Shown one piece after another: positions 8,453-61,439 of a stretch of DNA of 64,000 nt. Each line of letters starts with the position of its first letter. Positions within the stretch are counted from its first letter, which is position 1. Both the position numbers and the translations under genes were made by a program. The notes below the pieces were generated by a model. That model was given only the letters and a program-made list of their open reading frames with translations, had not been told where the DNA came from and searched no databases. Origin of the DNA: a virus (lineage: Duplodnaviria > Caudoviricetes); IMG/VR virus record IMGVR_UViG_3300033463_005840, positions 32,001-96,000 of that record. One strand, given 5' to 3'.

Positions 8453-8980
8453 ATGAGACTGAGAAAATACAATATTGCGGCAGATTACTTGATTGCAGCT
8501 AATGTTTGCAGTAAAAAAGGCAACAAAAAAGATGCTTTGAAACTGATGTTGAAAGCCGCTGAAGAGCCTGATATGGCTGATTTGGCGAAAGCTCTTCAAG
8601 ACATTAACGAGAAGTTGGATATGCTTTTGGGTGGTGGCGATATGGATGTTGATGACGTTGCTGATGAAGAAATCGTCGATGAAACCGAAACCACTGATGA
8701 AGACGTTGATGCTGATGAAGACGTTGATGCTGATGCTGATGAAGACGTTGATGCTGATGAAGATACGGATGCCGATACGGATGATGAGGAAGAGGAAATT
8801 GGTGACGTTGAAGAAATCATTTCTTCCATTCAGAAACGTAAAGCTAAGTTGAAAGCTCGTGCTGCTGCAAAACGTGAGAGAGTTATGTCTGCTATGCGCA
8901 ATCGTTCGTTGAATCGTATGTCGAGGAGACCGGAACGCTTTGCAAGAGAAGAACGCAAACCTCTGTTGCGTAGACGTTAA
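8453..8980 (+). CDS. acidic internal head/core-like protein with basic C-tail
   Basis: AAGGAG RBS; DVDADE repeats; Arg-rich tail after RVMSA. Confidence 0.65.
   Translation: MRLRKYNIAADYLIAANVCSKKGNKKDALKLMLKAAEEPDMADLAKALQDINEKLDMLLGGGDMDVDDVADEEIVDETETTDEDVDADEDVDADADEDVDADEDTDADTDDEEEEIGDVEEIISSIQKRKAKLKARAAAKRERVMSAMRNRSLNRMSRRPERFAREERKPLLRRR
8695..8785 (+). repeat. coding tandem repeat GATGAAGACGTTGATGCT
   Basis: About three near-identical 18-24 nt units encoding DEDVDA, plus degenerate units. Confidence 0.7.
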
Positions 8981-9006
8981 TCTTAATCCTACATTGAGAT
9001 TTCGTT

Positions 9007-9050
9007 AAAGGTGCCTCGGATTATTTTTCGAGGCACCTTTGTTTTTGTTT
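9007..9050 (+). terminator. intrinsic terminator
   Basis: AAAGGTGCCTCG / CGAGGCACCTTT stem followed by a T-rich tract. Confidence 0.8.
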
Positions 9051-9111
9051 GCAAAATGCAATTTTATTGAATTAAAAACTTTCTACTTTAAAACAAGAGA
9101 AATTTTTGATA

Positions 9112-9208
9112 TATATATTTACAAGAGAGGATTATTCTTTCAAATAGATTAAGAAAATATTTTGTCTGGAAATAATCTATGCGAGGGGGATAGTTCCGTA
9201 TATATTTA
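9112..9208 (+). repeat. promoter-hairpin-promoter element, copy A
   Basis: Two TATATATTTA motifs 87 nt apart enclose an imperfect palindrome with core ATAGATTA (9144-9151) / TAATCTAT (9173-9180). Confidence 0.7.
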
Positions 9209-9240
9209 CAAGTAATAACTATTTTAAGGAGATTATTAAA

Positions 9241-9651
9241 ATGACTTTCGATGAATTGTTAGACGAATATGGGCTTGAATTTATGAATGAGGAATATCCA
9301 GATGATAGCCCACAACCTATGGAAGCATTGGATGAACTTTTCTCTTCATACGAAGCTGTAAGAGCTGCTTTTTACGGTGGTAGGTATGGATTTAAGCAAG
9401 ATGTATTTAATCCTAATGATGAGTATTTTAAATTCGATGGGAATGGGAATATTCAATCTATACCATACGTCAATGATTATCTTAATGATGTTATTGATGA
9501 AGATGACTTCATTCAATGGTGCAAAGAAAAGGGGTATGTGGATGATGAAGATGAGGGTGCAGTAGAATCTTCTCTGAAACGTAAAGCTAGAAAACCGGTT
9601 CATAGCAGACTTATTAAAAGACCCTCTCGTTTGTTTCGTAGAAAAGGTTAA
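9241..9651 (+). CDS. acidic protein, FNPND-YF family paralog 1, C-terminal basic tag
   Basis: FNPNDEYFKFDGNGNIQSI...DDFIQWCKEKGY, then AVESS and an Arg/Lys tail. Confidence 0.75.
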   Translation: MTFDELLDEYGLEFMNEEYPDDSPQPMEALDELFSSYEAVRAAFYGGRYGFKQDVFNPNDEYFKFDGNGNIQSIPYVNDYLNDVIDEDDFIQWCKEKGYVDDEDEGAVESSLKRKARKPVHSRLIKRPSRLFRRKG

Positions 9652-9670: not shown

Positions 9671-10225
9671 ATGATTACCAGAAAAAACAAACTTACGTTT
9701 AAGAAACACAGCATAAAATCAGCTTTGCGCCGGAGACCCATATTATCGGCTAGGGATGACGCTGAATCTTTGCTCAAAAACATGATGCCTCATATAGGAG
9801 ATGAGGTAGACAAAGTAGAGTCTGGCAAAGTTTATATTAAGACAGATTATCCTTTATACGGCGGGACAGGTTATTTTGTTGCTGATATCCCTTTTATGGT
9901 GATTTATGATAGTCATAACGGAGAACTTTTAGACGTTATTATTCGTGAAAAGGACTTAAGATATTCCATGGAAGATTTATTTCAAGAAATTTTTAATGGG
10001 ATAGACTTTGGCGGTATGTCCGAGGAAGAGTTTAATGAAATCACTCCTGAAGAAGCCATAGAAATCGGAAAAGATGAGTTCGAGGCCTTTATGGACTATA
10101 TGTATGATACTTATAGCCATATAGACAAAGCCAAGTTTGTCCGTTTGGTAAAACAGTATATGGAAGAGGAAGGAATTGTTGAATCCTCTTTTAAGATACA
10201 TCGCAGATTCAAAAATTCTAATTAA
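9671..10225 (+). CDS. acidic hypothetical protein with basic N- and C-terminal tags
   Basis: MITRKNK..IKSA LRRRPILSA, acidic core, IVESS FKIHRRF. Confidence 0.7.
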   Translation: MITRKNKLTFKKHSIKSALRRRPILSARDDAESLLKNMMPHIGDEVDKVESGKVYIKTDYPLYGGTGYFVADIPFMVIYDSHNGELLDVIIREKDLRYSMEDLFQEIFNGIDFGGMSEEEFNEITPEEAIEIGKDEFEAFMDYMYDTYSHIDKAKFVRLVKQYMEEEGIVESSFKIHRRFKNSN

Positions 10226-10241: not shown

Positions 10242-11315
10242 ATGATTAAAAGAAATTTTAACAAGCATAACGTAAAAAGCAATTTAATTAACAGAATTAA
10301 GCATAAAAGACGGATTGAATCTGCTTATGGCTTAATAGATGGTCCTACCTTCGATAAAAATAAAAAAGTATATACTTATTATACTCCTGACGTTATATAT
10401 GTTACTCAGCACCCTTTAAAAACTAATAAAAGTCTTGGTTTAATAGAGGTTTTTGATAATGTGGACGATGCGACCGCCACTATGTGGAAATGGGAAGATG
10501 AAGATACTGGTGCCGGCTGTACTTTCTATATAGATAGAAATCTTATTGATATGACAGATGAAGAATTAGAAATTGCAGAAGAGGATGATGATTCTGAAGA
10601 ATATGAGTATTTAAACAGCATTCTTATAGATTCTGGTATGCCTTTACATGGTGTTGAAGACCTTTCCGATAAATATGGAACGGGCAATGAAGAAGTATGG
10701 TATTATCCTTGGTATCTGGAGGATAAAGAGAACAATGTTGTTGACTCTCATTTAAGAGAAACAGCAAAATCTTTGCCTAAAAGAAAAAGGCTCGTTAAAA
10801 GTTCTATGGACGAAGAAAAGCTTAATAAAATTAAATTCTTTTTTATAAAAGACGTTGGTTGCACTCCTAAGTCCATAGAATTAAAAAATGGGGGCGTAGA
10901 TGTAATTGTCTCTTTACCTATGGATGAATATAATAGAACTGACTTTAATAAAAAGCTTTATGCTTTTAAAAAAGAATATAAAAACTCATCTGGAACTGAT
11001 TTAGTTACCGAAGATTTAACTACATATAAACGTGATAGTATTTTTAATAAAAAGAAAACTCCTTATACGTACTTGCATTTTTTTGAACTTAATCCTTCGG
11101 TTAAGCTTGAGTCTTCTTTAAGACCTTTCCGTAGGTTTAATATAACGGAATCTGCTTACGGTGATAAAAGAAATTATCCTAAAATTGATATTTTTGAAGA
11201 TGGAGAATACGTCGCCACTACAACATGGGCTAAAACATGTAAAGAAGCAGAGGAAAGATATAAAGAAGAACATCCAAAAGCTAAAAACGTAAAAGCTAGA
11301 AAACAGAGGAGCTAA
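10242..11315 (+). CDS. three-module putative polyprotein
   Basis: ATG 10242 after AAGGA; three payload blocks separated by basic linkers bounded by IESA, VVDS/VKSS and LESS/TESA. Confidence 0.7.
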   Translation: MIKRNFNKHNVKSNLINRIKHKRRIESAYGLIDGPTFDKNKKVYTYYTPDVIYVTQHPLKTNKSLGLIEVFDNVDDATATMWKWEDEDTGAGCTFYIDRNLIDMTDEELEIAEEDDDSEEYEYLNSILIDSGMPLHGVEDLSDKYGTGNEEVWYYPWYLEDKENNVVDSHLRETAKSLPKRKRLVKSSMDEEKLNKIKFFFIKDVGCTPKSIELKNGGVDVIVSLPMDEYNRTDFNKKLYAFKKEYKNSSGTDLVTEDLTTYKRDSIFNKKKTPYTYLHFFELNPSVKLESSLRPFRRFNITESAYGDKRNYPKIDIFEDGEYVATTTWAKTCKEAEERYKEEHPKAKNVKARKQRS

Positions 11316-11562: not shown

Positions 11563-12759
11563 ATGATTACAGTAGGTAGGGGATATCGTCAGCAACATTC
11601 GATTTTAAAGCCAGCTAACAATGGTATAGCTGTTGTTGCTAACAATCGTCTTATGCAAGCAGTTGGCCAACAAAACGCCAACCATATTGAGGCATTAAAA
11701 GTTGATGGTGTTCCCTGCCCTGTTTTCATTAAGAATTTCAGTGGTAAAAAATGTTCTTGCTGTAAAGACTTAAATAAGTTAACAAGCACAGGAGCTAATG
11801 AATCGTCTTTTATGTCAGACTTTACCGTTGATGAAAGAGATGATGACACAGATGAGACATTTTTAGAGTTTCCACAATCTAAGACATCTAATACAGATGA
11901 TGTTATTGAAGACGAACCCCCATTAACGGAAGACCTTTTAGAAGAGTATGCTTTAAAAGATGATAACTCTTTAATATTCGGCGGTGATAAAACTCCATGC
12001 GGAATCTGTTTTGGTGCCGGCTATAAAGACTCTTACAGTTTGTTTAACGGCCAGAGAATTGTTTTAGATTATTACGACAATCCTGAACTCTTTGGTTTTA
12101 AGATTGAGAATACTGCTCCGCTTAGTTTTTCAGCTTCTTATAGTTCTGATAATTATATTAAGTGGAAAGTAAAGCTTCCTACATATTTTATGAAGTTCTT
12201 AGGCTTAAGAGTTAGAAACAATTTGTCAAGCTGTTCTAATTATGACGTGTTTATCAGCTTTGATGATATTAACTTTGTTAAGTATGAAGATTCTGTTTTC
12301 CAGAGCAGACAGGGACAAGACTCAATAGCTACAATCAAAGTTATTCCGAGAAGTATGAATAACTCTTTATTTTTTACTTTGACTCATATTGAGTTGTTTT
12401 ATCAATTTGCGGAATTTCCTTATGCTGATTTTAAACCGATTCAACAATCAGAAAACTGGGAATATTTTGAAGCATTAAAAACGACTGAGATTGAATTTGC
12501 CGGCGATATTAGAAATGTAAATAGGGAATCGGTTATTCTCGATACTAAAAACGCTCTTTTGTGGAAAGTTGTTTCCGTAACACCACATTATACAGTAAAT
12601 AGGCAGTTATTTAAGCAAGAGATTGACTTACGCATGATACAGCCATCAGAAGCTTTATATTGTTTGTATTTAATCCAGAGACCGTTTGTTGAAGTTGTTT
12701 ACAGAGGACTTGAACAAAAACAGGGAATGAAAACTTATTTGGGAGAGTTTAAAGAATGA
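11563..12759 (+). CDS. putative head-completion/neck structural protein
   Basis: CSCC..CGICFGAGY Zn motif of the kind seen in large-phage head-tail proteins; virion gene context. Confidence 0.45.
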   Translation: MITVGRGYRQQHSILKPANNGIAVVANNRLMQAVGQQNANHIEALKVDGVPCPVFIKNFSGKKCSCCKDLNKLTSTGANESSFMSDFTVDERDDDTDETFLEFPQSKTSNTDDVIEDEPPLTEDLLEEYALKDDNSLIFGGDKTPCGICFGAGYKDSYSLFNGQRIVLDYYDNPELFGFKIENTAPLSFSASYSSDNYIKWKVKLPTYFMKFLGLRVRNNLSSCSNYDVFISFDDINFVKYEDSVFQSRQGQDSIATIKVIPRSMNNSLFFTLTHIELFYQFAEFPYADFKPIQQSENWEYFEALKTTEIEFAGDIRNVNRESVILDTKNALLWKVVSVTPHYTVNRQLFKQEIDLRMIQPSEALYCLYLIQRPFVEVVYRGLEQKQGMKTYLGEFKE

Positions 12760-13352: not shown

Positions 13353-13793
13353 ATGAGAATGATTAAAAAGCCTGTAAGACATGATTCTAAAGTTAGGATT
13401 TTGTCAAAGAAAAGGATTTTAGCTGACGAGAAAATTTCAGAGGAAGACTTTGAAGATTTGGTCGAAGAATATGGTAAAGACTTTATTTATGGTGGATATA
13501 CTGAATCCAGACTAGATAATATGGATGATTTTGACCTTATATGTGATGAAGCCTTGCATCTAAAACCCACAGACCTCGCTGAGAAGATTGCACGTTCTTA
13601 TGCTTATGAACCAAATAAAAAACCAGGTGATTGCGAAAATTTTGATGTTTATGCAGAGTATTTCGATTTTAATAGATATGAAGACAGATTTATTTCAATT
13701 TCAGAACACTTTATAGAGGATTATATGAAAGAAGAAATCGCTCCTTTTAAAGAAGATTTTCTTGACTGGTGCAAAGAACGGGGCTACATCTAG
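13353..13793 (+). CDS. acidic protein, FNPND-YF family paralog 2, N-terminal basic tag
   Basis: KVRILSKKRILA leader; FDVYAEYFDFN...EDFLDWCKERGYI; same leader/RBS sequence (GTAATAACTATTTT(T)AAGGAGATTATTAAA) as the 9241 gene. Confidence 0.75.
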   Translation: MRMIKKPVRHDSKVRILSKKRILADEKISEEDFEDLVEEYGKDFIYGGYTESRLDNMDDFDLICDEALHLKPTDLAEKIARSYAYEPNKKPGDCENFDVYAEYFDFNRYEDRFISISEHFIEDYMKEEIAPFKEDFLDWCKERGYI

Positions 13794-16776: not shown

Positions 16777-16865
16777 TATATATTTACAAGGAAGATGTTC
16801 TTTTTGATGATTAAAAATAGTCTATTTAAGAATAATCTATGAAAAGGGACTATTCCGTATTTAAG
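16777..16865 (+). repeat. promoter-hairpin element, copy B (second motif degenerate)
   Basis: GGAAGATGTTCTTTTT..GATTA..TAATCTATGAAAAGGGACTATTCC, near-identical to copy C; preceded by a terminator hairpin at ~16733-16772. Confidence 0.7.
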
Positions 16866-16895
16866 AATAAAACTTTTTTGAAAAGGGGAATTATA

Positions 16896-17576
16896 ATGAA
16901 AGTTGGAGAAATTAAACAAGCAGTAGACGATGGAAAGATTGTGCATTGGGCAAATGAAGGATATTTTGTTTTACCTTATGGAGACGATTATTGTATTACT
17001 TGTGCACAAAATGGTCATACTATTGGACTTACATGGAGGGACGGAAAAACTCTCAATGGAAATGAGGAAGATTTTTATATTGAAAATAATCCTTCAGAAA
17101 GAGAAATTGCTATTTATGAGGAATTAACGGGAAAACATAGAAAAAGAGTAAAGTCTTCTTTACCAACTACAAAATATTTATCAAGACATCAAGATTATAA
17201 AAAAAGACATTCAGAGTTAAGAGCCTCTTTTAGGCATAGAGTATTGAGTGCAAGAAATAATGTTATAAGGCAATTAAAAGCCTTATTAAAAGAGTATGAT
17301 GATAATTATACACGTTGGAGTGACGCTATTGAAGCAGATATAAGAAGATACCCTGATGATGAGGATTTGCCTCTGGTAAGTTTGGCTTTGGATTGCGTTG
17401 GTGATGAGCTCGCCTCTGCCATAAAAGACTATCCTAATGTTGACAGTGATGACTTTCCGTTAGAACTTGATAATTTGTCTTTTAGTTTTTTTGAACTGAC
17501 AAATAGGAAAGCTGAAAAAGAGATGTCTGACTGGTCTTATAAAGTCAGAGAATTAGTTTATCCGAGTAATCCATAA
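16896..17576 (+). CDS. two-module putative polyprotein
   Basis: Small phage domain (EIKQAVDDGKIVHW..IGLTWRDG), basic linker RVKSS..LRAS..RVLSA, then an acidic helical domain. Confidence 0.7.
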   Translation: MKVGEIKQAVDDGKIVHWANEGYFVLPYGDDYCITCAQNGHTIGLTWRDGKTLNGNEEDFYIENNPSEREIAIYEELTGKHRKRVKSSLPTTKYLSRHQDYKKRHSELRASFRHRVLSARNNVIRQLKALLKEYDDNYTRWSDAIEADIRRYPDDEDLPLVSLALDCVGDELASAIKDYPNVDSDDFPLELDNLSFSFFELTNRKAEKEMSDWSYKVRELVYPSNP

Positions 17577-18878: not shown

Positions 18879-19883
18879 ATGTTAATTAGGAATTATATCT
18901 CTAAAATTTTATCCAATGCTCAACGCTACCCAGTTATTGCCATGACTGCAAATGACCTTATGAGAAAAGCAAGGGAGAGTGGTATAGATTTAAAAGCTTA
19001 TGGACAAGAGTTTATTAATAAATTACTAGATTTTATTGATAACGTTGATACTGTTTTTGGTGATGATTATGTAAGTGTTGCTACTGAAATTAAGAACTTT
19101 GAAAAGTATAATCCAGAAATTTGTGAAGATATGGTTAATAAAAAACTAATTGATTTGAAAATTTTCAATCCTTCTAGCCAATTCGCTACTTCTGATTTTA
19201 AAGAGTATTTTTACAATCCTTTCTTATCTGGTTTTACTAATTACTTATTTAACCGCAATCCCTTAGAGTTTCCTAAAACCAAAAAAGAGGCTTTAAAATT
19301 AATAGATGAGTACGAACAATCCTTAGACCCTGATGAACTTACTGACTATAATATATATAAATATGATTTTATAGATAATTGGGTAGGATACGCTGAGGAC
19401 AAAAAAACTCAGCAAGCTATTGATAATATTAAAGAAAACCTTAATGTTAAGAGAATTAAAAAGCTATTATCTAATGCTAGTATTTATAAAGGAGGCAAGG
19501 CTGGCGAGACGATAAAAAATAATATACAACTTTTGCTAGATAGTTCAGATGATGCTTTAAGAGATGCAATTATTAAAGCTTTGAATAAGAAACACAATCT
19601 TATTAGAGAAAAGTGGTATGGTGTAGATTTAGAAAGACGTTTTGGTAGAGATTTTAGTGATGGAAATCTTCTTGTTGGTTATATTAGTTTTAATTCAATG
19701 AAATTGCCTAATGTTATGTTGCCTCTATGTTCAGAGTTCTTTGAAAGAGACTTAGAATTTTTGCACTATAACAGGGGCAAATGGTATGATTTATCTGTGA
19801 CTAAAAATAGTATTGTAGTTGATGATGGACTTTATTATTTAAGTGTTCGGGTTGTAAATGTATTAAGAAATTTAAAAGCTTAG
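18879..19883 (+). CDS. hypothetical protein, paralog of the C-terminal module of 33690..35009
   Basis: Shared pattern F.NKL..ID..DT....Y..EIKN...FN..S....DFK..Y..FL..FT.Y...PK. Confidence 0.7.
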   Translation: MLIRNYISKILSNAQRYPVIAMTANDLMRKARESGIDLKAYGQEFINKLLDFIDNVDTVFGDDYVSVATEIKNFEKYNPEICEDMVNKKLIDLKIFNPSSQFATSDFKEYFYNPFLSGFTNYLFNRNPLEFPKTKKEALKLIDEYEQSLDPDELTDYNIYKYDFIDNWVGYAEDKKTQQAIDNIKENLNVKRIKKLLSNASIYKGGKAGETIKNNIQLLLDSSDDALRDAIIKALNKKHNLIREKWYGVDLERRFGRDFSDGNLLVGYISFNSMKLPNVMLPLCSEFFERDLEFLHYNRGKWYDLSVTKNSIVVDDGLYYLSVRVVNVLRNLKA

Positions 19884-19908: not shown

Positions 19909-20106
19909 ATGAAACTCATAAATCCATTATATGTTATTAATAAGAAAGTGGAGGCATCCGTTAAAGTAGAGTCCTCTGCTGAGATTTCACCGGTCTCTCA
20001 TAAAGAGATGCAGCTTTGTCAACTTATTACAGTTGACAATAAAACCGTGCCAGTCTATGTTGACTTTGATAATCGTGTTTGCTTGCCTGTAAGAAAGGAC
20101 GCTTAA
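19909..20106 (+). CDS. small hypothetical protein
   Basis: 65 aa; VEAS/VESS motifs; ends NRVCLP. Confidence 0.6.
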   Translation: MKLINPLYVINKKVEASVKVESSAEISPVSHKEMQLCQLITVDNKTVPVYVDFDNRVCLPVRKDA

Positions 20107-20107
20107 A

Positions 20108-20407
20108 ATGCCAATAAATGATTATAGGGATATTGCTTTTGAAAAAGGCACTTGGGAAAATCTTGCTCTTAATAAACTTGTTAATTATCTGGGGAAAGAA
20201 AGAGCCGCATTTGAAAGTGGTAATGAGAGAGATACCTTTGTTGTCGTTGATTATGGTTTAACCGAAGATAATTCCATATCCGTTGATACTGCTATTGTGG
20301 ATGAGGACGGTTCCATCGGTATGGTTACTACTCATGAATTTACACTGGATTTAGACGGGTTAGAGGACGCTTTCAGATACTTCCATATTTCGTTTGATGA
20401 TGTTTGA
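20108..20407 (+). CDS. hypothetical protein, paralog of 44432..44713
   Basis: G.WE..ALN.LV.Y..ER...RD.FV.VDYGL...DT..VDE.G...F.L..DGLE.A.RY shared. Confidence 0.7.
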   Translation: MPINDYRDIAFEKGTWENLALNKLVNYLGKERAAFESGNERDTFVVVDYGLTEDNSISVDTAIVDEDGSIGMVTTHEFTLDLDGLEDAFRYFHISFDDV

Positions 20408-23343: not shown

Positions 23344-23363
23344 GACTTAATTTTGTTTCTTTT

Positions 23364-23416
23364 AAAAATCCCTCTTGTAAAAAAGAGGGATTTTTGTTTA
23401 ATATATATTTATAGAA
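23364..23416 (+). repeat. terminator + late promoter cassette
   Basis: AAAAATCCCTCTTGTAAAAAAGAGGGATTTTTGTTTAATATATATTTATAGAA, near-identical at 25919 and 32895. Confidence 0.85.
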
Positions 23417-23484
23417 GTTATCTCTCTAACTCTTATAAGGGATTGTGGGGGTAATAAGTAATACTTATATAAGGAATTAAAAAG

Positions 23485-23952
23485 ATGTTGAAAAGAAAAT
23501 CATTAAAACAAAGAGTGGTAGCATCAAATAGAATGTTGTCTCGTAAAAGAGTTCTTTCTGAAAAAGAGCTTAGCAAAGAGGAATATGAGGAGTTATTGGG
23601 ACAGTATGGTTATGAATATTTAAGTGAGAATTACCCCGATGATGTACCTTATGAAATGGGCATGTTACCTGAAATATTCCCTGTAAATGACGGCAATGAT
23701 TATTTTAGATTATTAAATAGTGTCTTTTTCGGTTATAAATATAATCCGTATGAAAAGCCTGATGGTACCTCTCATAGAGAATCTTTCAATCCTAATGATG
23801 CGTATTTTGCGTTTAATGGTTATGCCAATCTTGTCTCTATCGATGAGTATGATTATGAAGCTTATCTGAATAACCACATTGATAAAGACGATTTTATTGA
23901 TTTTTGTAAAGAGAATGGTTATCTGGAAGATGATTCCGAGGACGAAGAGTAA
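23485..23952 (+). CDS. acidic protein, FNPND-YF family paralog 3, N-terminal basic tag
   Basis: RVVAS..RVLS leader; FNPNDAYFAFNGYANLVSI...DDFIDFCKENGYL. Confidence 0.75.
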   Translation: MLKRKSLKQRVVASNRMLSRKRVLSEKELSKEEYEELLGQYGYEYLSENYPDDVPYEMGMLPEIFPVNDGNDYFRLLNSVFFGYKYNPYEKPDGTSHRESFNPNDAYFAFNGYANLVSIDEYDYEAYLNNHIDKDDFIDFCKENGYLEDDSEDEE

Positions 23953-25996: not shown

Positions 25997-28069
25997 ATGT
26001 TTAAGAATATTAGTAAATATGGTTTAGAAAAACAAGTTGATGGCAAATTAGGTTTTGCATATCGTGTTGTTTCATCTGAGTTGAAAAAGCCTGAAGCTGT
26101 CGTAGCTAACGCATTAGGTTCTTCTTTACAGAATAAAAACATCTCTAGTGAAAAGAATCTTAAAGCTGTTGAGCAACGCCTGTCTGAGTGTAGTGCGACT
26201 GAAAAACTTCCTTCCCCGTCAGGTAAGAAAAAGCACAAAGTGACAGCTTCGGGTGTTCCGGCTTTTGGTGGTATTGGCAATGCTAATAATATGGCAGGTA
26301 GTTCTGTTGGTTCTTTGACCCCCTACCTTCCGATACTGGACGGCATTATTAATGCTGACGACTGGGTTACGAAAAGAAAGATATATCGTGATATTTATTC
26401 TTACGACTTAGCAGGGGCAGTTGTTGACATATTCGCTAATTTGCCTTTCTCTGATTTTAACTTAGTCGGTATAGATGATAAAGGCGTTTTAGATACATAC
26501 GCTTCGGCAATAGCAAATTTACCTTTACGTTCTATGCTTCCGGCAATTACCGTTGACTATCTTGTTAATGGTGCTTTTTTAGGCAGTTTGGATTATAGAG
26601 ATTCAAAGTTTAATTATTTATTCCCACATAATTTAGATGATGCTATTATAAAGAACCTCGGTTTATTTGTTGGAGACCCTATTGTCGATGTTAAGTTACC
26701 ACCACAAATTTTAGAGGTTTTAGATATAACAGGGGACCCTCGTATTGATGCGTTGAAAGAAAAACTGCCTCCTTATATGACAAGTGATAGGAATGGCAAT
26801 AACGTTATTCAATTAGAGCCTGAATATACAATGTATATTCCTAGAGGCGGGATGTCTACTGCTAATATGGGTAGCTCATTTTTTAACAGAATTTTGACAA
26901 TTCATCTTGTCGAGAAAGCTCTTATTAAAGGAACGATTGAGTCGGCACAACGCAGACAAAGAGCTATTATGCACATCCAAGCAGGTATTGACGGTGTATG
27001 GGAACCTACTAATGAAGAGTTAACACAGATTGCTAACCTAGTTTTAGCTGCTGACCTTGACCCTATTTCCGGTATTGTTGTTACGAGAAATGGTGTTCAA
27101 TTTAGTGATATAAAAGCAGGTTCTGATTTTTGGAACTGGACAGAGATTTTTGATTTTGCTACTAAAGCTAAATTAGAAGCACTTGGTGTTAATGAGGGAA
27201 TATTATCTGGGGATGCTTCCTTTAATACATTAGAGGCGGCTCTTTCGAGTTTTATGGATAATATTACTTATACAAGAGAATTAATCTCTAACAAAGTTTT
27301 TGAAGAGAAATTATTTAAGATTGTTGCTAAAGATAACGGATTTTATAAAGAGAATAAAACGGGTGCAGTTCTTTCTACTATTGACGAGCCTAAAAAAGTT
27401 GAGTATATTAACCCCTTAACAATCTTAGCTGTCAATAATAACAAAGATGAAGATGGCAGAGAGTATAATATGCCTACAATTCTCTGGGAAAGACAGTTAA
27501 AGCCTCATGCCGATACTGACTATATGGAAATCTTGCAAAGACTTGAAGAGAAAGGCATTCCGATACCTTTAAGATTATATGCGGCTGCCGGCGGTGAAAA
27601 CATTGATGATTTGATTAAAGCAATGGATAATGATGCGGAGTTGCAAATAAAAATAGCTGAGAATAAGAAAGCATTGATTGAGGATGCCAAAAGAGAAAAG
27701 GTTTTAAAATTTCTTAATGTTGAAGGTGCTGATTCTTTTGATGAGGGTGGCTTCGACAACAATGATTTCGGTGGAGATAATTTTGGAAGTGATAATTTCG
27801 GTGATGATAATTTTTCGGATAACGAACCCTCCGGCGAAGAAGAGAATCCGGAAAATACTTTATCATCGTCTGTTAATAATATAAACAAAGGTATTCTTAG
27901 TAGTGCTAATAAGGCAAGACATATTACAGAGTTAGATAATCTTTATGGCCCTCGAATTAGAGATAGTGAGGGCAGACGGAGACCTTTGACTCCTGAAATG
28001 AGAAAACACATTGAAGATAAAGCTAATCAACAGATTAGTGACGCTTTGAAAAAGATGAGCGAAAAGTGA
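25997..28069 (+). CDS. portal protein
   Basis: 690 aa; IYRDIY..AVVD..LPFSDF, ALGVNEGILSGDASF and an acidic DNFG-repeat tail; late motif upstream. Confidence 0.7.
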   Translation: MFKNISKYGLEKQVDGKLGFAYRVVSSELKKPEAVVANALGSSLQNKNISSEKNLKAVEQRLSECSATEKLPSPSGKKKHKVTASGVPAFGGIGNANNMAGSSVGSLTPYLPILDGIINADDWVTKRKIYRDIYSYDLAGAVVDIFANLPFSDFNLVGIDDKGVLDTYASAIANLPLRSMLPAITVDYLVNGAFLGSLDYRDSKFNYLFPHNLDDAIIKNLGLFVGDPIVDVKLPPQILEVLDITGDPRIDALKEKLPPYMTSDRNGNNVIQLEPEYTMYIPRGGMSTANMGSSFFNRILTIHLVEKALIKGTIESAQRRQRAIMHIQAGIDGVWEPTNEELTQIANLVLAADLDPISGIVVTRNGVQFSDIKAGSDFWNWTEIFDFATKAKLEALGVNEGILSGDASFNTLEAALSSFMDNITYTRELISNKVFEEKLFKIVAKDNGFYKENKTGAVLSTIDEPKKVEYINPLTILAVNNNKDEDGREYNMPTILWERQLKPHADTDYMEILQRLEEKGIPIPLRLYAAAGGENIDDLIKAMDNDAELQIKIAENKKALIEDAKREKVLKFLNVEGADSFDEGGFDNNDFGGDNFGSDNFGDDNFSDNEPSGEEENPENTLSSSVNNINKGILSSANKARHITELDNLYGPRIRDSEGRRRPLTPEMRKHIEDKANQQISDALKKMSEK

Positions 28070-28784: not shown

Positions 28785-29312
28785 ATGGAAAGAATAAGAC
28801 GAATCAGTGATAGACGCAATCCAAGCTTCTTTAAAAGAAGTCAATCTCCTATGAGACGTAATCGGGTATTGTCTGCTCCAAGTAAATACAAACAAGACAC
28901 TTTTAAATTCAGAGGATTCCCTGTTACTCTCTTGTTAAAGAAAGTGTGGGCAGTTCAATTAAAAACATCTAAGTATGTTAATATTGCTAAGGTTGATATT
29001 GTTTCTAATAGAGAGATTAATTTTGTTACGGTGACAAGAATCCCAGGTGAAGCTCCGAGATTACATAGAGTCAGGGTTTATTCATCGGACCCGAATTACC
29101 CAGATAGACTTGTTGACTGTAAGTCAGTTAGATATGAGTGTGATTGTGCAGACCATAAATATCGGAAAGAAGTCGCTGACTCTTTGCATTATATTTCAGA
29201 TATTAAATACAGTAATGGTAATATGCCTCTTGAAACAAATCCTGGTATGGTTCCCGGCATTTGCAAACACGCATTTAAAGCTTTAATGTATATTTATCAA
29301 CATAGGCTTTAA
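28785..29312 (+). CDS. SWIM zinc-finger protein with basic leader
   Basis: CDCAD...PGICKH; leader ends RVLSA. Confidence 0.7.
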   Translation: MERIRRISDRRNPSFFKRSQSPMRRNRVLSAPSKYKQDTFKFRGFPVTLLLKKVWAVQLKTSKYVNIAKVDIVSNREINFVTVTRIPGEAPRLHRVRVYSSDPNYPDRLVDCKSVRYECDCADHKYRKEVADSLHYISDIKYSNGNMPLETNPGMVPGICKHAFKALMYIYQHRL

Positions 29313-33014: not shown

Positions 33015-33674
33015 ATGCTTAGAAAACATAAATCTATTTTTAAAAGGCCTTTCTCAGTTAAATCAGCAGTTAAAGATTTACAGGCCACTCTTTTGAATGA
33101 TTTGAAAAGAGTCTTCGAGGATAAAGGTCTTTTTAACGATAAAGAGGGAATAATACCGACAGAGGTAGTAGAAATCAATAAAAATACTGTCGAAACGTCA
33201 GCTGATGTGGATTCGGTTTTCTTTTGTACTTCAGGTTATAATGTTAATTATACTAAAGCTGCCGATGCTATAGAGGATTGGATTGCCACCATGCAATCAT
33301 ACGCAAATGAAGACTTAGACTCGGATTCTTCGTCTTATGAAGAGACTGAACTTGAATATATGTATGACATGGATAATAACCACGGCTATTATATTGAATT
33401 GAAAGCCGAAGTGAGTCCGGTTAAAGATTTCAAGAGCAAAGCATTTAGAACTGGTATGCCTGTCGATACTGAAATGTGCAGGATATCTTTGTCAATGCGT
33501 TTACGTGCCAGTGATAATCCTAATTCTTATGTTGACTTCCCAAAAGAATCTCTTATAATTCGTAAGAAGAAGGATTCGGAAATTTACCGAGTCGGTAATA
33601 TTGATGCTCCAAAATACACTTCTTATTGGGATTTGTTTGATTTTATAACTTCTTATACTAAAACGATGATTTAA
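33015..33674 (+). CDS. acidic hypothetical protein with basic leader
   Basis: MLRKHKSIFKRPFSVKSA followed by an acidic body. Confidence 0.7.
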   Translation: MLRKHKSIFKRPFSVKSAVKDLQATLLNDLKRVFEDKGLFNDKEGIIPTEVVEINKNTVETSADVDSVFFCTSGYNVNYTKAADAIEDWIATMQSYANEDLDSDSSSYEETELEYMYDMDNNHGYYIELKAEVSPVKDFKSKAFRTGMPVDTEMCRISLSMRLRASDNPNSYVDFPKESLIIRKKKDSEIYRVGNIDAPKYTSYWDLFDFITSYTKTMI

Positions 33675-33689: not shown

Positions 33690-35009
33690 ATGAAAAATTT
33701 TAGAAGAATGACAGCCAGCATAGTGCCAGATTATAAGATGCAGATAATCACGGAAGCACAGGCTAAGAAAATCTTGAAAAAGTTTTCTCAAGAATATGAT
33801 TTCTTGTATAAACATGAAGATAATGTGGCCGGATATAGTGAAGCAGTTGCTGCATATGATGATTTTATTGATAATAAGACTTTTGAAAGACTTATTCAAG
33901 ACTGTGTTAATGTTCGTAGTGATTTTTTCAGTTCTGACCGTGAGGTGGGAGCTTTTATGTTTGCGTTAGATGCTATGGGAGTTTTAGATGCGATTGATGC
34001 TCGTGCTTCTGATGAACAAATTAAGAAAGTTATTGACAATTACAATTTCCCCTCTCGTAAAAAAACTCAAAGTAGTGTAATATCCAAGAGACATAAAGTT
34101 TTATCAGAACTTTCCACCTCTGATGTGAAAAAGGCCGCTCAAAAAGAAGGCTTATATTATTTAACTGATGATTTTCTTAATAAATTAACTGTTTACATAA
34201 ATAAATATGATACTTTATTAGATGTTTCATACTTAAATATTAAGCAGGAAATTAAAAATTATCTTGAAAATTTTGCGGATTTTAAAGATGTGCAATTTTT
34301 TATTGATAATTTTTTACAAGAAGAGTTTGTCTTTAATTTAGATAGTGATACAATTTCGGAAGATTTTAAGAAAATTTATTATAATGATTTTCTTCCTGAT
34401 TTTACAAAGTATTGTATAGAAAATAATATAATCGACAATTTACCTAAAAATAGAAAAGGGTGGACTAATTTAGTTAAGGATTATAAAGATAATTATGGTG
34501 AGTATGATTATGTTAGTGATTTAAATGATGAATTAGACTCTTGCATAAGTGATAAGGTCGAAGGTGTATACGGAGATGACTATGTTCTTAATCTATACGG
34601 GGATTTTGATTTTGATTTGGATATTAATAGCATTCAATATTGGATTAGAGATGCTTATATTCGTAACGAGCCTGATTGGCTAGAAACTTTACGCAAAGCT
34701 GATAAACACGATTTGGAAGATGCGATTGTATCAGCCATGCGAGATAATATTGATATAGACTTAGCATATAATTATTATTCACCGTTTGATAGATATCTTG
34801 AAAATGGTAAATTATTGATTGAAGACGTGTCAATTGGTGAACTTGAGATTCAATTAACGGATACAGGTTTGCCTATTTGTGAAGAACTTTTGGATTTAAG
34901 AAATAATTATACGGATGGAAAGTATATGTATATTAATCGTGAGGGGGATAGCGTTTGCTATTCAGTTAATGTTGATGACGTTTTGAAATACTTGAAAGGA
35001 AATAAATAA
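33690..35009 (+). CDS. two-module putative polyprotein
   Basis: RRMTAS leader, module 1 (..SSDREVGAFMFAL), linker RKKTQSS..KVLS, module 2 paralogous to the 18879 gene. Confidence 0.7.
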   Translation: MKNFRRMTASIVPDYKMQIITEAQAKKILKKFSQEYDFLYKHEDNVAGYSEAVAAYDDFIDNKTFERLIQDCVNVRSDFFSSDREVGAFMFALDAMGVLDAIDARASDEQIKKVIDNYNFPSRKKTQSSVISKRHKVLSELSTSDVKKAAQKEGLYYLTDDFLNKLTVYINKYDTLLDVSYLNIKQEIKNYLENFADFKDVQFFIDNFLQEEFVFNLDSDTISEDFKKIYYNDFLPDFTKYCIENNIIDNLPKNRKGWTNLVKDYKDNYGEYDYVSDLNDELDSCISDKVEGVYGDDYVLNLYGDFDFDLDINSIQYWIRDAYIRNEPDWLETLRKADKHDLEDAIVSAMRDNIDIDLAYNYYSPFDRYLENGKLLIEDVSIGELEIQLTDTGLPICEELLDLRNNYTDGKYMYINREGDSVCYSVNVDDVLKYLKGNK

Positions 35010-40988: not shown

Positions 40989-42332
40989 ATGTTGAATTTT
41001 AAAAAGAGAGTTAGTTTGAATTTGCAAAAAGTTTTTGACATTTCAAAGAATGTCAAAAAAGTTATGTGTGAAGTTAATACCAATGACTATACATTTAATG
41101 ATATAAAGTCGGCGGCGATTGACTTGTTTACAGTTAAGGCTTCCATGGTTAAGAGCACTTATCGGCAAGTTGCTGATAATTATGTTTCGTTTGTTCTTAT
41201 GCCAAATAAGATTTCAAAGCCTTATGATAAGACCAAGTATAAAACAATTTCCTCAGATATAATCTCTGATATTCAGGATAATAGCATTTGGAAAGTCGTT
41301 GATGTGGATGGAGAGAAGAGAATAGTTTTGATTGATGACCAAAACTTCAATAATATCTTTAAAGCGTCAACCAGAATTTCAACTTTCGCTGCAATGTATG
41401 AGCCGCCGAAAGCAGCAATAAATGATTATGTGTCTTTTTATTCGATTAAAAGCAATGCGTTGGTTTCTGGTATTGTTACAGAAGCTGAAGATGATACTTC
41501 AATTATTATTGACCGTAACTGTAAATATCACCGCATTAAAAATAATGCAATCATTGACGTTGCTGATATGCACAATTCCAGTTTGAATCAATGCTTGTCA
41601 AATCTTACTGAAACTATGGGCGACAATGTTCTTTCTTATTATAAAATGCTTTATGATAATACAGCGTTCTTTGATAAATTAGATGAATTGGTTGGTATTG
41701 ACGTTAAGAGTAATAAGGGCGGCGATACTATGACCATTCAATCCGCTTTGTTGGATGAAGATACTATTAATAATATGAAAGATGTTATTAAAGATTATTT
41801 CATTAATAATATTGACAATGAAGAAGATGTTGGTAATACGGAAGGTGATTTTGATATTGACGTTGACCCTATGTTTGAGGGCGATGACGTTTTAGAGTTT
41901 GTTGTTGATGAGAACGATGATTTGGAAACTCTTGAAGATGTACCTTCTGCTGATGTTCTTACACCTGTTGAAACGCCGGTTATCGTTGACAATCCTGCTA
42001 TTACGGATATTGGTGTTGACCATGTTGCGCCTGTTACGGATATTGCGCCTGTTGCACCCGCTATTCCGGCTGTTGAACCTGTTATACCGGAAGCCGACCC
42101 TGCAATGCCATTGATGGTTGATGAAACTATTCCAACTATTGATATGGAAACTCCTGTTGCTCCGACATACAATCCTTCTGATATTATCGTCAATCCCGAT
42201 AATTCGGTGACAAGACAAGAAATTTTGCCTTCGCAAAAAGATAATATAGTTCCCGAAGACGAGCTTTCTGTTGACGATTTGATAGATGAAGTTTTAGAGG
42301 AAGAAAAGAAGGAATTAGGTGACAATGTATAA
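40989..42332 (+). CDS. putative head-associated protein with acidic Pro-rich tail
   Basis: Late motif at 40911; Asp/Pro-rich C-half ending VDDLIDEVLEE. Confidence 0.55.
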   Translation: MLNFKKRVSLNLQKVFDISKNVKKVMCEVNTNDYTFNDIKSAAIDLFTVKASMVKSTYRQVADNYVSFVLMPNKISKPYDKTKYKTISSDIISDIQDNSIWKVVDVDGEKRIVLIDDQNFNNIFKASTRISTFAAMYEPPKAAINDYVSFYSIKSNALVSGIVTEAEDDTSIIIDRNCKYHRIKNNAIIDVADMHNSSLNQCLSNLTETMGDNVLSYYKMLYDNTAFFDKLDELVGIDVKSNKGGDTMTIQSALLDEDTINNMKDVIKDYFINNIDNEEDVGNTEGDFDIDVDPMFEGDDVLEFVVDENDDLETLEDVPSADVLTPVETPVIVDNPAITDIGVDHVAPVTDIAPVAPAIPAVEPVIPEADPAMPLMVDETIPTIDMETPVAPTYNPSDIIVNPDNSVTRQEILPSQKDNIVPEDELSVDDLIDEVLEEEKKELGDNV

Positions 42333-42555
42333 TAGATTGCGTAATCGCTTAGAGTCTAACTTAAATAGTGCTGATTATATATCTTTGAATATTCCTTTAC
42401 TTATGCGTGTTTTGGAATATGCTCATGAAGATGCTAATGATGATTTAGATTTGCACTTCATTGTTGAAAGGATGATTGATTTATCGGCTAATAAAGAAGT
42501 TTTGACAATGAGCGATTATACTTCTATCGTTGATAAGTTGCACTATCAAAAATAA
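42325..42555 (+). CDS. small phage protein with basic leader
   Basis: MYNRLRNRLESN, then IPLLMRVLEYAHEDA..DLH..ERM. Confidence 0.65.
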   Translation: MYNRLRNRLESNLNSADYISLNIPLLMRVLEYAHEDANDDLDLHFIVERMIDLSANKEVLTMSDYTSIVDKLHYQK

Positions 42556-58800: not shown

Positions 58801-59585
58801 AAGAGAATTATAAGGTGGAAATTAATGATACGGTATTCACGGAATATGGTAATGCGGTTTTAAAAAGCGTAAATGACTGTTTTGCCTTAGTTCAGTTAAA
58901 AGATACGCAGATTTCGCTCCGTAAAGACAAGATATTTACGGCATTGACACAGAAGCTGAATCCGGATTTCGTAAAGATTAATGATTATATGATTAAGTTT
59001 ATTAAGAATGATGAGATTGTTGATAATGAGGCCAAAGAGGATGAGTGTATAGAATTGGATGCGGCAATTGTTGATGGTTTCCCCACATTATTAACTTTTA
59101 TTCAGGATAAGGATAATGAAAAATTATCTGCCTTTGACTTTAAGTGTTTAAAGAATATCTCAATGGCTAATATAATTAACCTTAACGATGCTAACCTGAT
59201 TCTTAATACCATAAAGAGTTACGTTTCAGAAGACCGTTTTAATTATATGCGTGGAGTCTGTCTTAAATTCTTTAACGGAGAGAAAATCAAACTCCCGCAG
59301 AAAAATTCGTTTTATAATCAATTCGGGGAAACTCTTACAGTCAGTATAATAGATGGTAAATTATATTTTGTGTTTAATTCGGAGGCTAAATATGCCGGTA
59401 AGATTAAAAACAAAATGGATATTGCTTGTATGTATATAAAAACGTTTACGAATTTGCAGGATATAAGATTAGAAATTTATCGCATAAACAAATTTTTAAC
59501 TATTGTAAATATAAACTCTTTATTGGAAAAACTTTCAAGAGACTCTTTCAAAAACTTGTTTGAATTTAAGCCCTTTAAAAGTTAA
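55896..59585 (+). CDS. large protein with degenerate SNF2/helicase-C-like segment
   Basis: GKIMIIC..ADVYIIYDTPF....IYTLTYENTLE; no recognisable Walker A or DExx. Confidence 0.55.
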   Translation: MDFNPLETDINENVWKLLKDASLAIFTAFKKETDDLGVIRTYSVSDFSELSGNSVINCLLSSFEYEVEYPENMMNWKVKSVFGKKKDNVEKLFKKIFPDFILPSYTKSIQINPLKDITFVPRVDMKDYESQTLTIKDLNNIFKSRLKDEDSRLSFKFYLNKEEVAFKNTDINSGINLIENNTVIFTIKINVFLKSESDMVKFVTNSNVLCLPIYKQFIAKQLSSLQQYTDKPFNQMNNIPVYDVKAFDYTNKFIQLYEQGKIFWVPDCDLLYADYINNYNLMYNADSKTIKEGIPEGNINKVLYVDGVTKTLVYTDEQANICSFSFYGGELLGKDVPPKKPESFDNFMKIASLEFGLLNTSYENQILKIYENFSVLKINVLLKCENKYYLKLEYDRIKNVIPFYDKEPTLKLDKDLIKPPRFNLGRLPVIYNTFFTDFSKNKVLFDFDLSLRDTFFINHIYTLLANYIIKRAVILTNDTSILFEKLTTKGVNPFIIDEVTLPNLISVLKDGIIDYIKQLPKEVIILINPSIFSAENITNVKKELVGNKPAYRHLVIELLSKMDYDYFVYYQTTIINESSETVLCLKELFNVAKYRYMWSHSNFNIKLLGDGYSDFKTKEIVFYELEYENVPVKLGDNKLKFYAETLKKIAIDIINDENYHSLVEESDFNKRNWKINNYLYNRLSLPLNFINNPNDKDYVYVEQFDQEDSGLISDKVLFINQIIYAHTYGGLINNVKRNTVAGKIMIICKDHTTRQYLKEKISAYGNNDKIILEIADSFIASADYTDADVYIIYDTPFDSSYLNNIINAIQYQKLNGLYDYKKSYIYTLTYENTLETTILNDNLNYILSQGMNHNYNDLFYTDEKDFISQDISYQSIDALNALLYKKYTDSKDVIESYKEFIFNKFYATYTDADVIEVTTVVPTDDSFNPPLPDYFYPINEETFITDNGVKLDSVYTFNCLDFKGNPLYKENYKVEINDTVFTEYGNAVLKSVNDCFALVQLKDTQISLRKDKIFTALTQKLNPDFVKINDYMIKFIKNDEIVDNEAKEDECIELDAAIVDGFPTLLTFIQDKDNEKLSAFDFKCLKNISMANIINLNDANLILNTIKSYVSEDRFNYMRGVCLKFFNGEKIKLPQKNSFYNQFGETLTVSIIDGKLYFVFNSEAKYAGKIKNKMDIACMYIKTFTNLQDIRLEIYRINKFLTIVNINSLLEKLSRDSFKNLFEFKPFKS

Positions 59586-59721
59586 ACTGTTTGGCTCTGT
59601 TTAACAATAGTGTTGAATTTAATTCTCCTTAATCAAATTTTTTGTTAAAGAAAAGTGTTGATTTACTCTCATTCTTTTAATACAATAAATAATAGGAAGT
59701 CAAGAGAATGAGAGGCTTATT

Positions 59722-60762
59722 ATGGACCAAGTAACAATACTCAGACAAATGTTTAAAACCCTTTCTCCAGAAGAGCAGAAGACATTTTTAAAATCATTGA
59801 AGCAAAAATCCGATGAAACGGAAGACTTTAAATCCTTCAAAGAAACGATTTTAAAACATAGCAATCATCCGTCTTCAGACCGGATTTGCTGTCCGCATTG
59901 TCATAGTGCTAATGTAACCAAGAACGGACACAAAGACCATGTTCAAAGATTCAGATGCAAAGATTGTGGTAAAACGTTCACTTACTCTAATAACACTATA
60001 ATCTTTTCAACGAAAAAGGACATAAGCAAGTGGGAGAAGTATTGCGAGTGTCTTTTGCATAAATTTACGTTACGGAAATCCGCTGAAATCTGTGGGATAT
60101 CCCTGCCGACCGCTTTCAGTTGGAGGCATAAAATCTTAGACGCTTTACAGAATATGCAGAATGACATTACCTTATCGGGAGTTGTTGAAGCGGATGAGAC
60201 GTTTTTCTCTGTCAGTTTTAAGGGACAAAAGAAAGAAAATTTTAGCATTCCCCGTGAGAGCAGACATAGAGGACATTCCAACTCTGTGCGGGGACTTTCT
60301 TACGAACAGGTTTGCGTACCGTGTATGGTAAACCATGAAGGAATGTCCGTTGGTAAAATCTCTAACTTAGGAAAACCTAATATTATGGACTTAGGGAAAG
60401 TAATCAATAACAAGATTGAAAAAGGTTCCGTCTTTGTCACTGATTCTTTAAAGAGCTATCAAAAAGTCGCTTTTGAGAATGAGTTAACCCATGTAAGAAT
60501 ACCCAGAGGCAAATATAAATCAGGAGCTTTTAACATTCAGACCATAAACAGCTATCACTCTGAATTAAAAAGACTGGTTATCGGTATCTTTAAGGGAGTT
60601 GCCACTAAGTATCTTAATAATTACATCGTTTACAATAATTTTTCTAATTTTTCCAAGAAAAATTTTTGTAATAAGTTAAATGAGCTGAAAGATTTTGTAT
60701 TCAGTACCTGCTGCAATACAAGAGGTTATTCAATAAGTTCACGAAAGGCGATACCGGTTTAA
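59722..60762 (+). CDS. IS1595-family transposase
   Basis: Zn finger CPHC..CKDC, HTH, VEADETF, VTDS..SY, IQTINSYHS..KR, GVATKYLNNY. Confidence 0.92.
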   Translation: MDQVTILRQMFKTLSPEEQKTFLKSLKQKSDETEDFKSFKETILKHSNHPSSDRICCPHCHSANVTKNGHKDHVQRFRCKDCGKTFTYSNNTIIFSTKKDISKWEKYCECLLHKFTLRKSAEICGISLPTAFSWRHKILDALQNMQNDITLSGVVEADETFFSVSFKGQKKENFSIPRESRHRGHSNSVRGLSYEQVCVPCMVNHEGMSVGKISNLGKPNIMDLGKVINNKIEKGSVFVTDSLKSYQKVAFENELTHVRIPRGKYKSGAFNIQTINSYHSELKRLVIGIFKGVATKYLNNYIVYNNFSNFSKKNFCNKLNELKDFVFSTCCNTRGYSISSRKAIPV

Positions 60763-60787
60763 TATATATTTATAGAAGGAAAGGAAA

Positions 60788-61033
60788 ATGGCTATGATTA
60801 CTAGAAAACGCACAAACAAAGATGTAGACGCTCTCATAGATGAAGTTCTTGCCGAAAACAACGAAGGGAACGAAGTCGAAAGCGGAACTATGACTGCTTT
60901 GGATAGGTATATTGTTGAAACATCTGACGAAATCTATCAGGACTATTTAAACGGCAAAAATTATGTTTCGCTGGAAGAAGCTATTGCTGAAATGGAAAGA
61001 GAGACGGGAAAGAGATATCATGTCAAAATATAA
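60788..61033 (+). CDS. putative antitoxin with phage-type N-terminal extension
   Basis: Acidic, 81 aa, overlaps toxin start; ends QDYLNGKNYVSLEEAIAEM; late motif at 60763. Confidence 0.6.
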   Translation: MAMITRKRTNKDVDALIDEVLAENNEGNEVESGTMTALDRYIVETSDEIYQDYLNGKNYVSLEEAIAEMERETGKRYHVKI

Positions 61034-61439
61034 AGTTAACATCTCAAATAAAGCTAAGGCTGAAATTAAAGACCAATACAAGTATATCTGTAGCTACGCT
61101 GATACTATAGATGTAGCAGATAATTGGTATGAGCAAACTATGAATGAGATTGCTAAATTAGCTTATATTCATGGATTCTCTGAATACCCGTTTATCAAGA
61201 AATTTAAAGCTCAAAAGAAAATTTTCGGTAAGGGAAGGCATTTTCAATTTATTCTCATTTATACCGTTAATGATGAAAAGGAAGAGATACTTATTATCCA
61301 TTGCCTTAACTGTAAACAAAAGCCTGTTAAATCTAATCTGATTCTAAGCCGTCATATACAAAGACATATACCTATAAACAGGCGTATTGCTTTTATCAGA
61401 TACAACAGGCGAAAAGTGCTTTGTAGGCATGGTAATTAA
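61020..61439 (+). CDS. RelE/ParE-family toxin with basic C-terminal extension
   Basis: YKVNISNKAKAEIKDQYKYI...A..W...I.KL...FILIYTV..E..ILIIH. Confidence 0.75.
   Translation: MSKYKVNISNKAKAEIKDQYKYICSYADTIDVADNWYEQTMNEIAKLAYIHGFSEYPFIKKFKAQKKIFGKGRHFQFILIYTVNDEKEEILIIHCLNCKQKPVKSNLILSRHIQRHIPINRRIAFIRYNRRKVLCRHGN

Follow-up and report, generated by a model that had tools for sequence, protein, structure and literature searches.

Putative head-protease sites and basic peptides on late accessory proteins of an uncultured jumbo phage

Background

The capsid targeting sequence (CTS) of bacteriophage T4 is a single conserved N-terminal sequence, which is not Arg/Lys-rich and is cut after Glu, within (L/I)-x-E. 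Herpesvirus assemblins (MEROPS S21) process their maturational and release sites at (V/L/I)-x-Ala↓Ser, where the arrow marks the scissile bond, and we know of no herpesvirus in which this site is used to process diverse cargo. In T4, the CTS is present on IPI-III and Alt, and is removed by the prohead protease gp21 (PMC3012670; PMC9026906). Head proteolysis in phiKZ and SPN3US (gp175, gp245) affects many head and ejection proteins, which are cut after A-x-E (PMC10052503; PMC5694885), and in SPN3US an N-terminal propeptide is removed from every substrate but the protease, by a rule ending in Glu (PMC10052503). Here we analyze positions 32,001 to 96,000 of the IMG/VR record IMGVR_UViG_3300033463_005840, a stretch of 64,000 nucleotides (hereafter the window) from the 214-kb genome of an uncultured jumbo phage with a contractile tail and low GC content (~33%). 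A short motif, [VILM]-x-[SA]-[SAN], recurs in its core head proteins and next to Arg/Lys-rich peptides (tags) carried by a set of mostly acidic accessory proteins, and we lean, though not strongly, towards the reading in which this motif is a head protease site and the basic peptides retain late accessory proteins within the core of the prohead until proteolysis removes the peptides.

The scheme works like that of the T4 CTS and gp21, but the conserved N-terminal CTS and the Glu rule both fail here. As in T4, the protease would be phage-encoded and of assemblin fold, one short cleavage rule would cover the capsid protein, the scaffold and varied accessory proteins, the tags would be removable, and the payloads are fast-evolving and plausibly directed against host defense. 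In contrast to the T4 CTS, the polycationic tags are variable, they are found at either end or in linkers, and the predicted P1 residue is Ser/Ala; moreover, T4 internal proteins are basic, whereas the payloads described here are very acidic. The phage resembles phiKZ and SPN3US in being a jumbo myophage in which a single protease would act on many head and ejected proteins, with several sites possible in one propeptide, but its head module is of another type and [SAG]-x-E is not enriched in its proteins. The initial annotation had cited the T4 and phiKZ cutting rules; the herpesvirus rule (hydrophobic-x-Ala↓Ser) is the closer one, as the P3-P1-P1′ pattern is essentially the same, with the bond marked by the arrow being a putative one throughout our data.

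Motif positions in core head proteins

Relatives of the phage were taken from IMG/VR and range in capsid-protein identity from 69% down to 32%. They include three complete genomes with terminal repeats (G001, G003 and G004), and three genomes, G001 (255 genes), G002 (73) and G003 (304), were compared in full. Genes of the window, nearly all of which are on the + strand, are referred to below by the position of their first nucleotide.

The motif is a sequence pattern common to the capsid protein, the scaffold, the portal and the cargo proteins. The major capsid protein (7332..8366, +; phrog_2522 at 2e-70) is ~35% identical to the capsid proteins of phiRSL1, PaBG, Yoloswag and BcepSauron, and the head module is of the PaBG/phiRSL1/BcepSauron type, not of the phiKZ type. 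Its putative sites are EVNA↓S (nt 7392-7406) and KILA↓S (nt 7428-7442), and the segment G-E-[VIFL]-N-A-[SHVG] is kept in 13 of 13 relatives (32-69% identity) and in BcepSauron, the flanking residues being variable. The scaffold-like protein (5187..6575, +), encoded two genes 5′ of the capsid gene, as are its homologues in relatives, has an N-terminal site KVFA↓S at nt 5205-5219 and the internal candidates VVESA, KTVSA, EIKSS and KIKAS. Its residues 7-11 read KVFAS, KIFAS, EILSS and EVFAS in four genomes (this phage and its relatives L001, G001 and G003), with an overall scaffold identity of ~31-32% in the two relatives measured, and the internal E-[IV]-x-[SA]-[SN], represented by EIKSS in this phage, is kept in four of four sequences. 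The portal protein (25997..28069, +; phrog_16240 at 6e-121) shows homology to its family from residue 93 on, and is preceded by an N-terminal extension of ~85 residues with the sites RVVS↓S (26063-26077), AVVA↓N and KVTA↓S (26237-26251), the last of which directly precedes the start of family homology; the G001 portal has QVVSS at the matching place, and the G003 portal lacks the extension.

Three further proteins follow the same pattern. The acidic protein encoded after the capsid gene (8453..8980, +) has a core net charge of -27, followed by RVMS↓A at 8879-8893 and a +9 basic C-tail. Its orthologues in G001, G002, G003 and L001 are built of an acidic core, a site-like peptide and a basic tail, in that order, and the peptide reads KVMAN, DVIAA and NVTSS in G001-G003, all of which fit the motif, EVVSK in L001, and NRVLAA in BcepSauron gp081. 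A small conserved head-module protein (19909..20106, +) has KVEA↓S and KVES↓S near its N-terminus; in G001 its orthologue carries KVTAS and adjoins the portal gene, and in G003 LISA is found further upstream in the N-terminus. The late acidic protein 40989..42332 (+; core net charge -53) has DIKS↓A and TVKA↓S (41100-41144) and ends with DDLIDEVLEE, and its orthologues have DFVSA at the matching place in G001 and IIAS in the same N-terminal region in G003. Overall, the conserved head-protein sites can be written as E-[VIFL]-N-A-[SHVG], [KE]-[VI]-[FL]-[AS]-S and V-L-A-[SAG], the last being found in the protease described below. The initial annotation had noticed such motifs near the N-termini of capsid, portal and scaffold proteins; they are indeed present with their position kept in orthologues of 33-69% identity, as is that of the post-capsid protein, and the conserved positions in capsid, scaffold, portal, post-capsid protein and protease suggest, at the level of sequence, a site of the head-protease kind.

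A second peptide, D-x-L-I-D-E-V-L with x-E after it, is found at 5733 in the scaffold-like protein, at 42273 at the C-terminal end of 40989, and at 60827 at the N-terminal end of 60788, which makes three copies in the window, and was not found in G001-G003. In the scaffold-like protein, DSLIDEVLSE comes directly after the putative site KTVSA. It may serve as a second docking element.

Motif frequency

Counts of the motif in the window proteins were compared with those in within-protein shuffles. Over all residues, 166 matches were found versus 121.7 expected (z 4.2), and in the first 60 residues 46 versus 22.4 (z 4.8), so that the excess over shuffled controls is present, as the initial annotation would have it. 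With Arg/Lys at P4, the counts rise to 37 versus 14.7 expected (z 5.9) for entire proteins and to 11 versus 2.7 for the first 60 residues, and when the N-terminal 55 residues were shuffled on their own, preserving N-terminal composition, 42 matches remained versus 25 expected (z 3.6). Paired sites 4-16 residues apart near the N-terminus occur in nine proteins, compared with 1.1-1.7 expected, a number reached by none of 1000 shuffles. In the same test, reversed motifs and variants with other P1 or P3 residues were not enriched, nor were the T4 rule [VILM]-x-E and the phiKZ rule [SAG]-x-E in the window proteins. A Glu-type specificity is not borne out by [SAG]-x-E, with z of 1.2 overall and 1.5 in the first 60 residues, or by [LI]-x-E, with z of 0.8 and -0.5, respectively. 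The z-scores given here are inflated, since a short motif was defined only after inspection of the data.

The tagged proteins are bipolar, with tags of +8 to +12 and cores of -15 to -22 per 100 residues, the proteome median being -1.1, and the motif is located at the charge switch in all seven strongly bipolar N-tagged proteins. Some of the matches are probably conserved helix residues rather than sites, such as LIAAN in 8453.

Head maturation protease

In BcepSauron, the annotated head maturation protease adjoins the scaffold gene. A tblastn search of the window with BcepSauron gp085 yielded no protease homologue; the protease belongs to phrog_18299 (E 9e-66), homologues of which were found in BcepSauron and in all three complete relatives, G001, G003 and G004. 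They total 93 and include P0040 (250 aa), which lies on a contig of 213,785 bp, the length also given for the contig with the window's proteins, and is probably the own protease of the phage described here, encoded outside the window. Invariant in the family are H117, S174 (the Ser in Y-S-M-G) and the segment E225-x-S-x-V; its members have a Cys/His insert resembling a zinc ribbon and an E-x-S-x-V-x-x-P-A end. The AlphaFold model of P0040 (pLDDT 86.6) has T4 gp21 as its best match (5jbl; Z 10.7, rmsd 2.7 over 132 residues), and it also matches herpesvirus proteases, the assemblins (Z 7-8.7 over ~120 residues). As judged from this model, the protease of the lineage is a Ser/His enzyme of the herpesvirus-assemblin/T4 gp21 fold, and the prohead protease presumed by the initial annotation thus finds its counterpart in phrog_18299. 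In addition to the fold, it would share with assemblin the processing of both itself and the scaffold; it differs from assemblin in being closer to gp21, in having the zinc-ribbon-like insert, and in showing no membership at the sequence level. No Pfam model matched the protease, which, in contrast to T4, gives no S77 match, and PF03420 (Peptidase_S77) had no match in the genomes of relatives, where the controls were unmatched as well.

The disordered N-terminal linker of the protease contains K-x-V-L-A-[SAG], which is conserved in the closer homologues, and similar motifs are found in many distant ones. It looks like a self-cleavage site.

The open reading frame (ORF) at 11563-12759, which lies between portal and scaffold in G001, was considered as a protease candidate and rejected, as its model is a beta-sandwich and has no protease match. 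It encodes a conserved 398-aa protein with Cys clusters, the C-terminal beta-sandwich of which resembles carbohydrate-binding modules; searches of PDB and Pfam gave no match. The protein could be part of the head or of its decoration.

Tagged accessory proteins

One payload family, phrog_4534, is represented by three paralogues, of which two have N-terminal tags and the third a C-terminal one. In 9241..9651 (+), the acidic payload is followed by AVES↓S (9559-9573) and a 26-residue tail of +12; 13353..13793 (+) begins with a +8 tag that ends in RILSK and RILA↓D (13395-13427); and 23485..23952 (+) begins with a +9 tag with RVVA↓S and RVLS↓E (23512-23562). No match to this family was found in Pfam, in a PDB sequence search or in the ESM Atlas. 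Its five outside homologues, four of them metagenomic (P0121-P0124) and one a 99-residue protein encoded in the early region of the small Lactobacillus phage PMBT4, are all untagged, in line with what the initial annotation had proposed to look for in payload homologues, and this occurrence indicates that the domain has its own function.

A second pair of paralogues places the motif at a module boundary. The two-module acidic protein 33690..35009 (+) has an N-terminal tag ending in RMTA↓S (33705-33719) and an internal junction KVLS↓E (34095-34109), and its C-terminal module exists as a stand-alone paralogue, 18879..19883 (+), which starts at the motif (KILSN, PVIA↓M). In the BLASTP alignment of the two (5e-15), residues 14-321 of 18879 correspond to 132-435 of 33690, so that the alignment begins at the internal motif of the latter, and the module boundary coincides with the motif.

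The orphan acidic protein 9671..10225 (+) is tagged at both ends, with SIKSA and PILS↓A (9710-9751) in a +9 N-terminal tag and IVES↓S (10175-10189) before a basic C-terminal tail; no relatives of it were found among 1.84 billion representative proteins, and neither 9671 nor 23485 has relatives in IMG/VR. Another orphan acidic protein, 33015..33674 (+), has a +6 N-terminal tag ending in SVKS↓A (33054-33068). The multi-module protein 10242..11315 (+) has a basic leader with NVKSN and RIES↓A, and basic linkers bounded by LVKSS, KLESS and ITESA, and the two-module protein 16839..17576 (+) has a basic internal linker with RVKSS, ELRAS and RVLSA (17145-17252). In the portal operon, 28785..29312 (+), with a Cys/His pattern that by eye appears to be of the SWIM type, has a 30-residue +8 N-terminal tag ending in RVLS↓A (28863-28877); its homologue in G003 lacks the extension, and in G001 the N-terminus is basic but of another sequence, with no motif. 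The small acidic protein 42325..42555 (+) has the short basic leader MYNRLRNRLES↓N and is a weak example, with its short tag and no relatives.

Thus, tags are found at N-termini, at C-termini and in linkers between modules. No conserved N-terminal targeting peptide could be seen among the cargo tags, which have in common their composition and layout, i.e. Met, a basic run and one or two sites. The initial annotation had listed about 15 unrelated tagged ORFs, and every peptide that it quoted was found in the corresponding ORF; the tags are present, although the paralogy within 9241/13353/23485 and between 18879 and 33690 means that these ORFs are not all unrelated. One of them, 30838, is rejected as cargo, and another is doubtful. 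In 30838, KIENS belongs to the start of a conserved domain, the gene has no late motif, and its sigma-70-like promoter (11 of 12 positions matching) points to a probable early anti-restriction gene; 61020 (PVKSN) is doubtful, with nothing beyond the pattern to recommend it. The 30838-32115 ORF is a tandem version of an S-adenosylmethionine-lyase-like domain (PF23780), which is single in G001, and each domain copy is preceded by K-[IV]-E-[NS]-S-x-LSRLY-x-KML.

When fixed tag criteria were applied, 6 of the 64 genes in the window were tagged. In relatives, N-terminal hits numbered 0, 1 and 1 and C-terminal hits 4, 1 and 4 in G001, G002 and G003, respectively, and of these we regard as real only the conserved post-capsid protein.

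Late promoters of tagged genes

The late-promoter-like motif TATATATTTAYRR is present in 18 copies in the window, all on the + strand, versus 0.18 expected, with examples at 3109, 9112, 9199, 13311, 14071, 16777, 23402, 25957, 32933, 40911 and 60763. It precedes the fiber, sheath and portal genes, as well as 9241 (9112 and 9199), 13353 (13311), 16839 (16777), 18879, 23485 (23402), 33015 (32933), 40989 (40911) and 60788. The placement of TATATATTTAYRR 5′ of both tagged and structural genes, which agrees with the initial annotation, indicates that the tagged genes are late genes.

The same motif is found 5′ of the 24069 gene and of 60788, a small ORF. A cassette combining a terminator hairpin, AAATCCCTCTTGTAAAAAAGAGGGATTT, with the late promoter is repeated 5′ of 23485, 33015 and the portal gene (23344-23484, 32875-33014 and 25899-25996, respectively), and 23485 and 33015 have ~50 nt of 5′ leader in common. 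This repeat may represent a mobile cassette of late genes or else a regulatory RNA.

Proposed mechanism and alternatives

In the reading that we favor, hydrophobic-x-(Ser/Ala)↓(Ser/Ala/Asn/Gly) would be the recognition site of the lineage's own head maturation protease, and the capsid protein, the scaffold-like protein, the portal, the post-capsid protein and the protease would be trimmed in the prohead at the conserved motif places. This phage would have added Arg/Lys-rich peptides (~10-30 residues, +3 to +12) to about ten late accessory proteins or modules, most of them very acidic, joining them through one or two copies of the motif at either end or between modules. Within the prohead core, these proteins may be retained through their basic peptides, probably by electrostatic attraction to polyanionic components, after which the protease would remove the peptides; once freed, the acidic payloads would either remain associated with the DNA or exit the head. 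We infer all of these steps, from targeting to the prohead and packaging to cleavage, with its exact scissile bond, and injection.

Several observations weigh against this reading. The motif carries little information, matching at ~0.6% per position, and was defined after the data had been seen; across the entire G001 genome it is barely enriched (z 2.5, and 1.2 with a basic P4). In orthologue alignments, its generic conservation (31%) does not separate from that of control motifs (24%), so that the case is made by particular, weakly conserved regions at the N- and C-termini. The P1′ residue is sometimes outside Ser/Ala/Asn, as in RILA↓D, RVLS↓E and PVIA↓M, and P0040 is assigned to this genome by the matching length of its contig. 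Very acidic proteins would be unfavorable inside a DNA-filled head, and our literature search found no measured cleavage sites or proteomics for this phage group or its cultured relatives. Finally, basic tags on accessory proteins are missing from the complete relatives G001 and G003, from which it follows that the tag is dispensable for head assembly and that the tags have expanded in this phage rather than forming a code common to the lineage. The proposal of a tag usable at either end is supported insofar as one payload family is tagged at either the N- or the C-terminus.

An alternative that we regard as improbable yet worth keeping in view is that the protease site is genuine in core head proteins only, and that the accessory proteins are not cargo, their Arg/Lys-rich ends being ordinary disordered, nucleic-acid-binding or self-neutralizing tails in which motif matches arise by chance or from composition. 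It would fit the low information content of the motif, the structural nature of some matches (LIAAN in 8453 and the domain start in 30838), the assembly of heads by relatives without such tags, and the finding that just 5 of 8 basic N-termini contain the strict motif, as compared with 22 of 56 other proteins. Evidence against it comes from the excess of P4-basic motifs in the first 60 residues (11 versus 2.7), the pairing of sites in nine proteins where one or two are expected, the placement of the motif at the charge switch in 7/7 strongly bipolar N-tagged proteins and at the module boundary of paralogues, and the late promoters 5′ of the genes.

We put about the same limited trust in a bolder form of the loading hypothesis, in which a changing set of very acidic cargo, possibly consisting of DNA-mimic anti-defense proteins, would be loaded electrostatically and independently of the end onto a polyanionic core, and would then be freed by the protease and pass into the host with the genome. 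Here any polycationic peptide with a protease site would suffice to dock a protein on the prohead core, which would be made of the post-capsid protein, with its Asp/Glu tract of ~60 residues, and the charged scaffold.

Somewhat less likely still is that the basic peptides themselves are the product, with the acidic domains acting as neutralizing pro-regions and the freed polycations staying behind as DNA counter-ions. Adenovirus Mu and pVII become DNA counter-ions in this manner once the adenovirus protease has cut them. Peptides of 12-30 residues with a charge of +4 to +12 would be released, the double sites would allow their clean excision, expulsion of the acidic cores would resemble that of scaffold fragments, and lysines of the T4 internal proteins contact DNA phosphates (PMC3012670). 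Arguing against it are the conserved folded domain of 9241, 13353 and 23485, which is untagged in five other sequences, the poor conservation of tag sequences, and the relatives without tags.

The basic peptides are most improbable as host secretion or degradation signals, recognized by signal peptidase I or ClpXP. Signal peptidase requires small or hydrophobic residues at -3 and small ones at -1, and acts on signal peptides with basic n-regions, so that a hydrophobic/small -3, Ser/Ala at -1 and a basic N-end would fit, but none of the tags has a hydrophobic core (h-region) of at least 7 residues, tags are found at C-termini and between modules as well, and the same motif is found on cytoplasmic head proteins and on the head protease; both the signal-peptide and the host-degron readings were rejected.

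Other features of the window

Apart from the genes discussed above, the window encodes a virion structural protein (6612-7310), the tail sheath (14119-16704), a baseplate wedge (35967-37397) and the large terminase (37394-40879), with nucleotide-metabolism and replication genes further along. Three proteins have large insertions relative to their G001 orthologues, which are probably inteins or homing elements: the terminase (1161 versus 661 aa), a helicase (50019-52904; 961 versus 568) and NrdD (20983-23343; 786 versus 628). The paralogues 24069-25367 (+) and 29353-30714 (-), of ~440 aa and with 34% identity, have no PHROG match and are probably TnpB-like. Two 99-aa paralogues (42% identity) are located before an nrdG-like gene (20108-20407) and after RusA (44414-44713). 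A run of ~10 G at ~61510-61530, just 5′ of a gene for a 766-aa methyltransferase-like protein (61543-63843), is a possible phase-variable tract.

Implications

If correct, the favored reading would supply a testable cleavage rule for phrog_18299, a large unstudied family of head proteases found in PaBG, phiRSL1, BcepSauron-type and many uncultured jumbo phages, and this rule would mirror that of herpesviruses, whereas all T4-like and phiKZ-like proteases studied so far follow a Glu rule. The favored reading would also mean that capsids can be loaded by means of simple polycationic tags at either protein end, which could be of use in engineering phage-delivered proteins, and that orphan, extremely acidic proteins would become candidates for pre-made, injected counter-defense factors.

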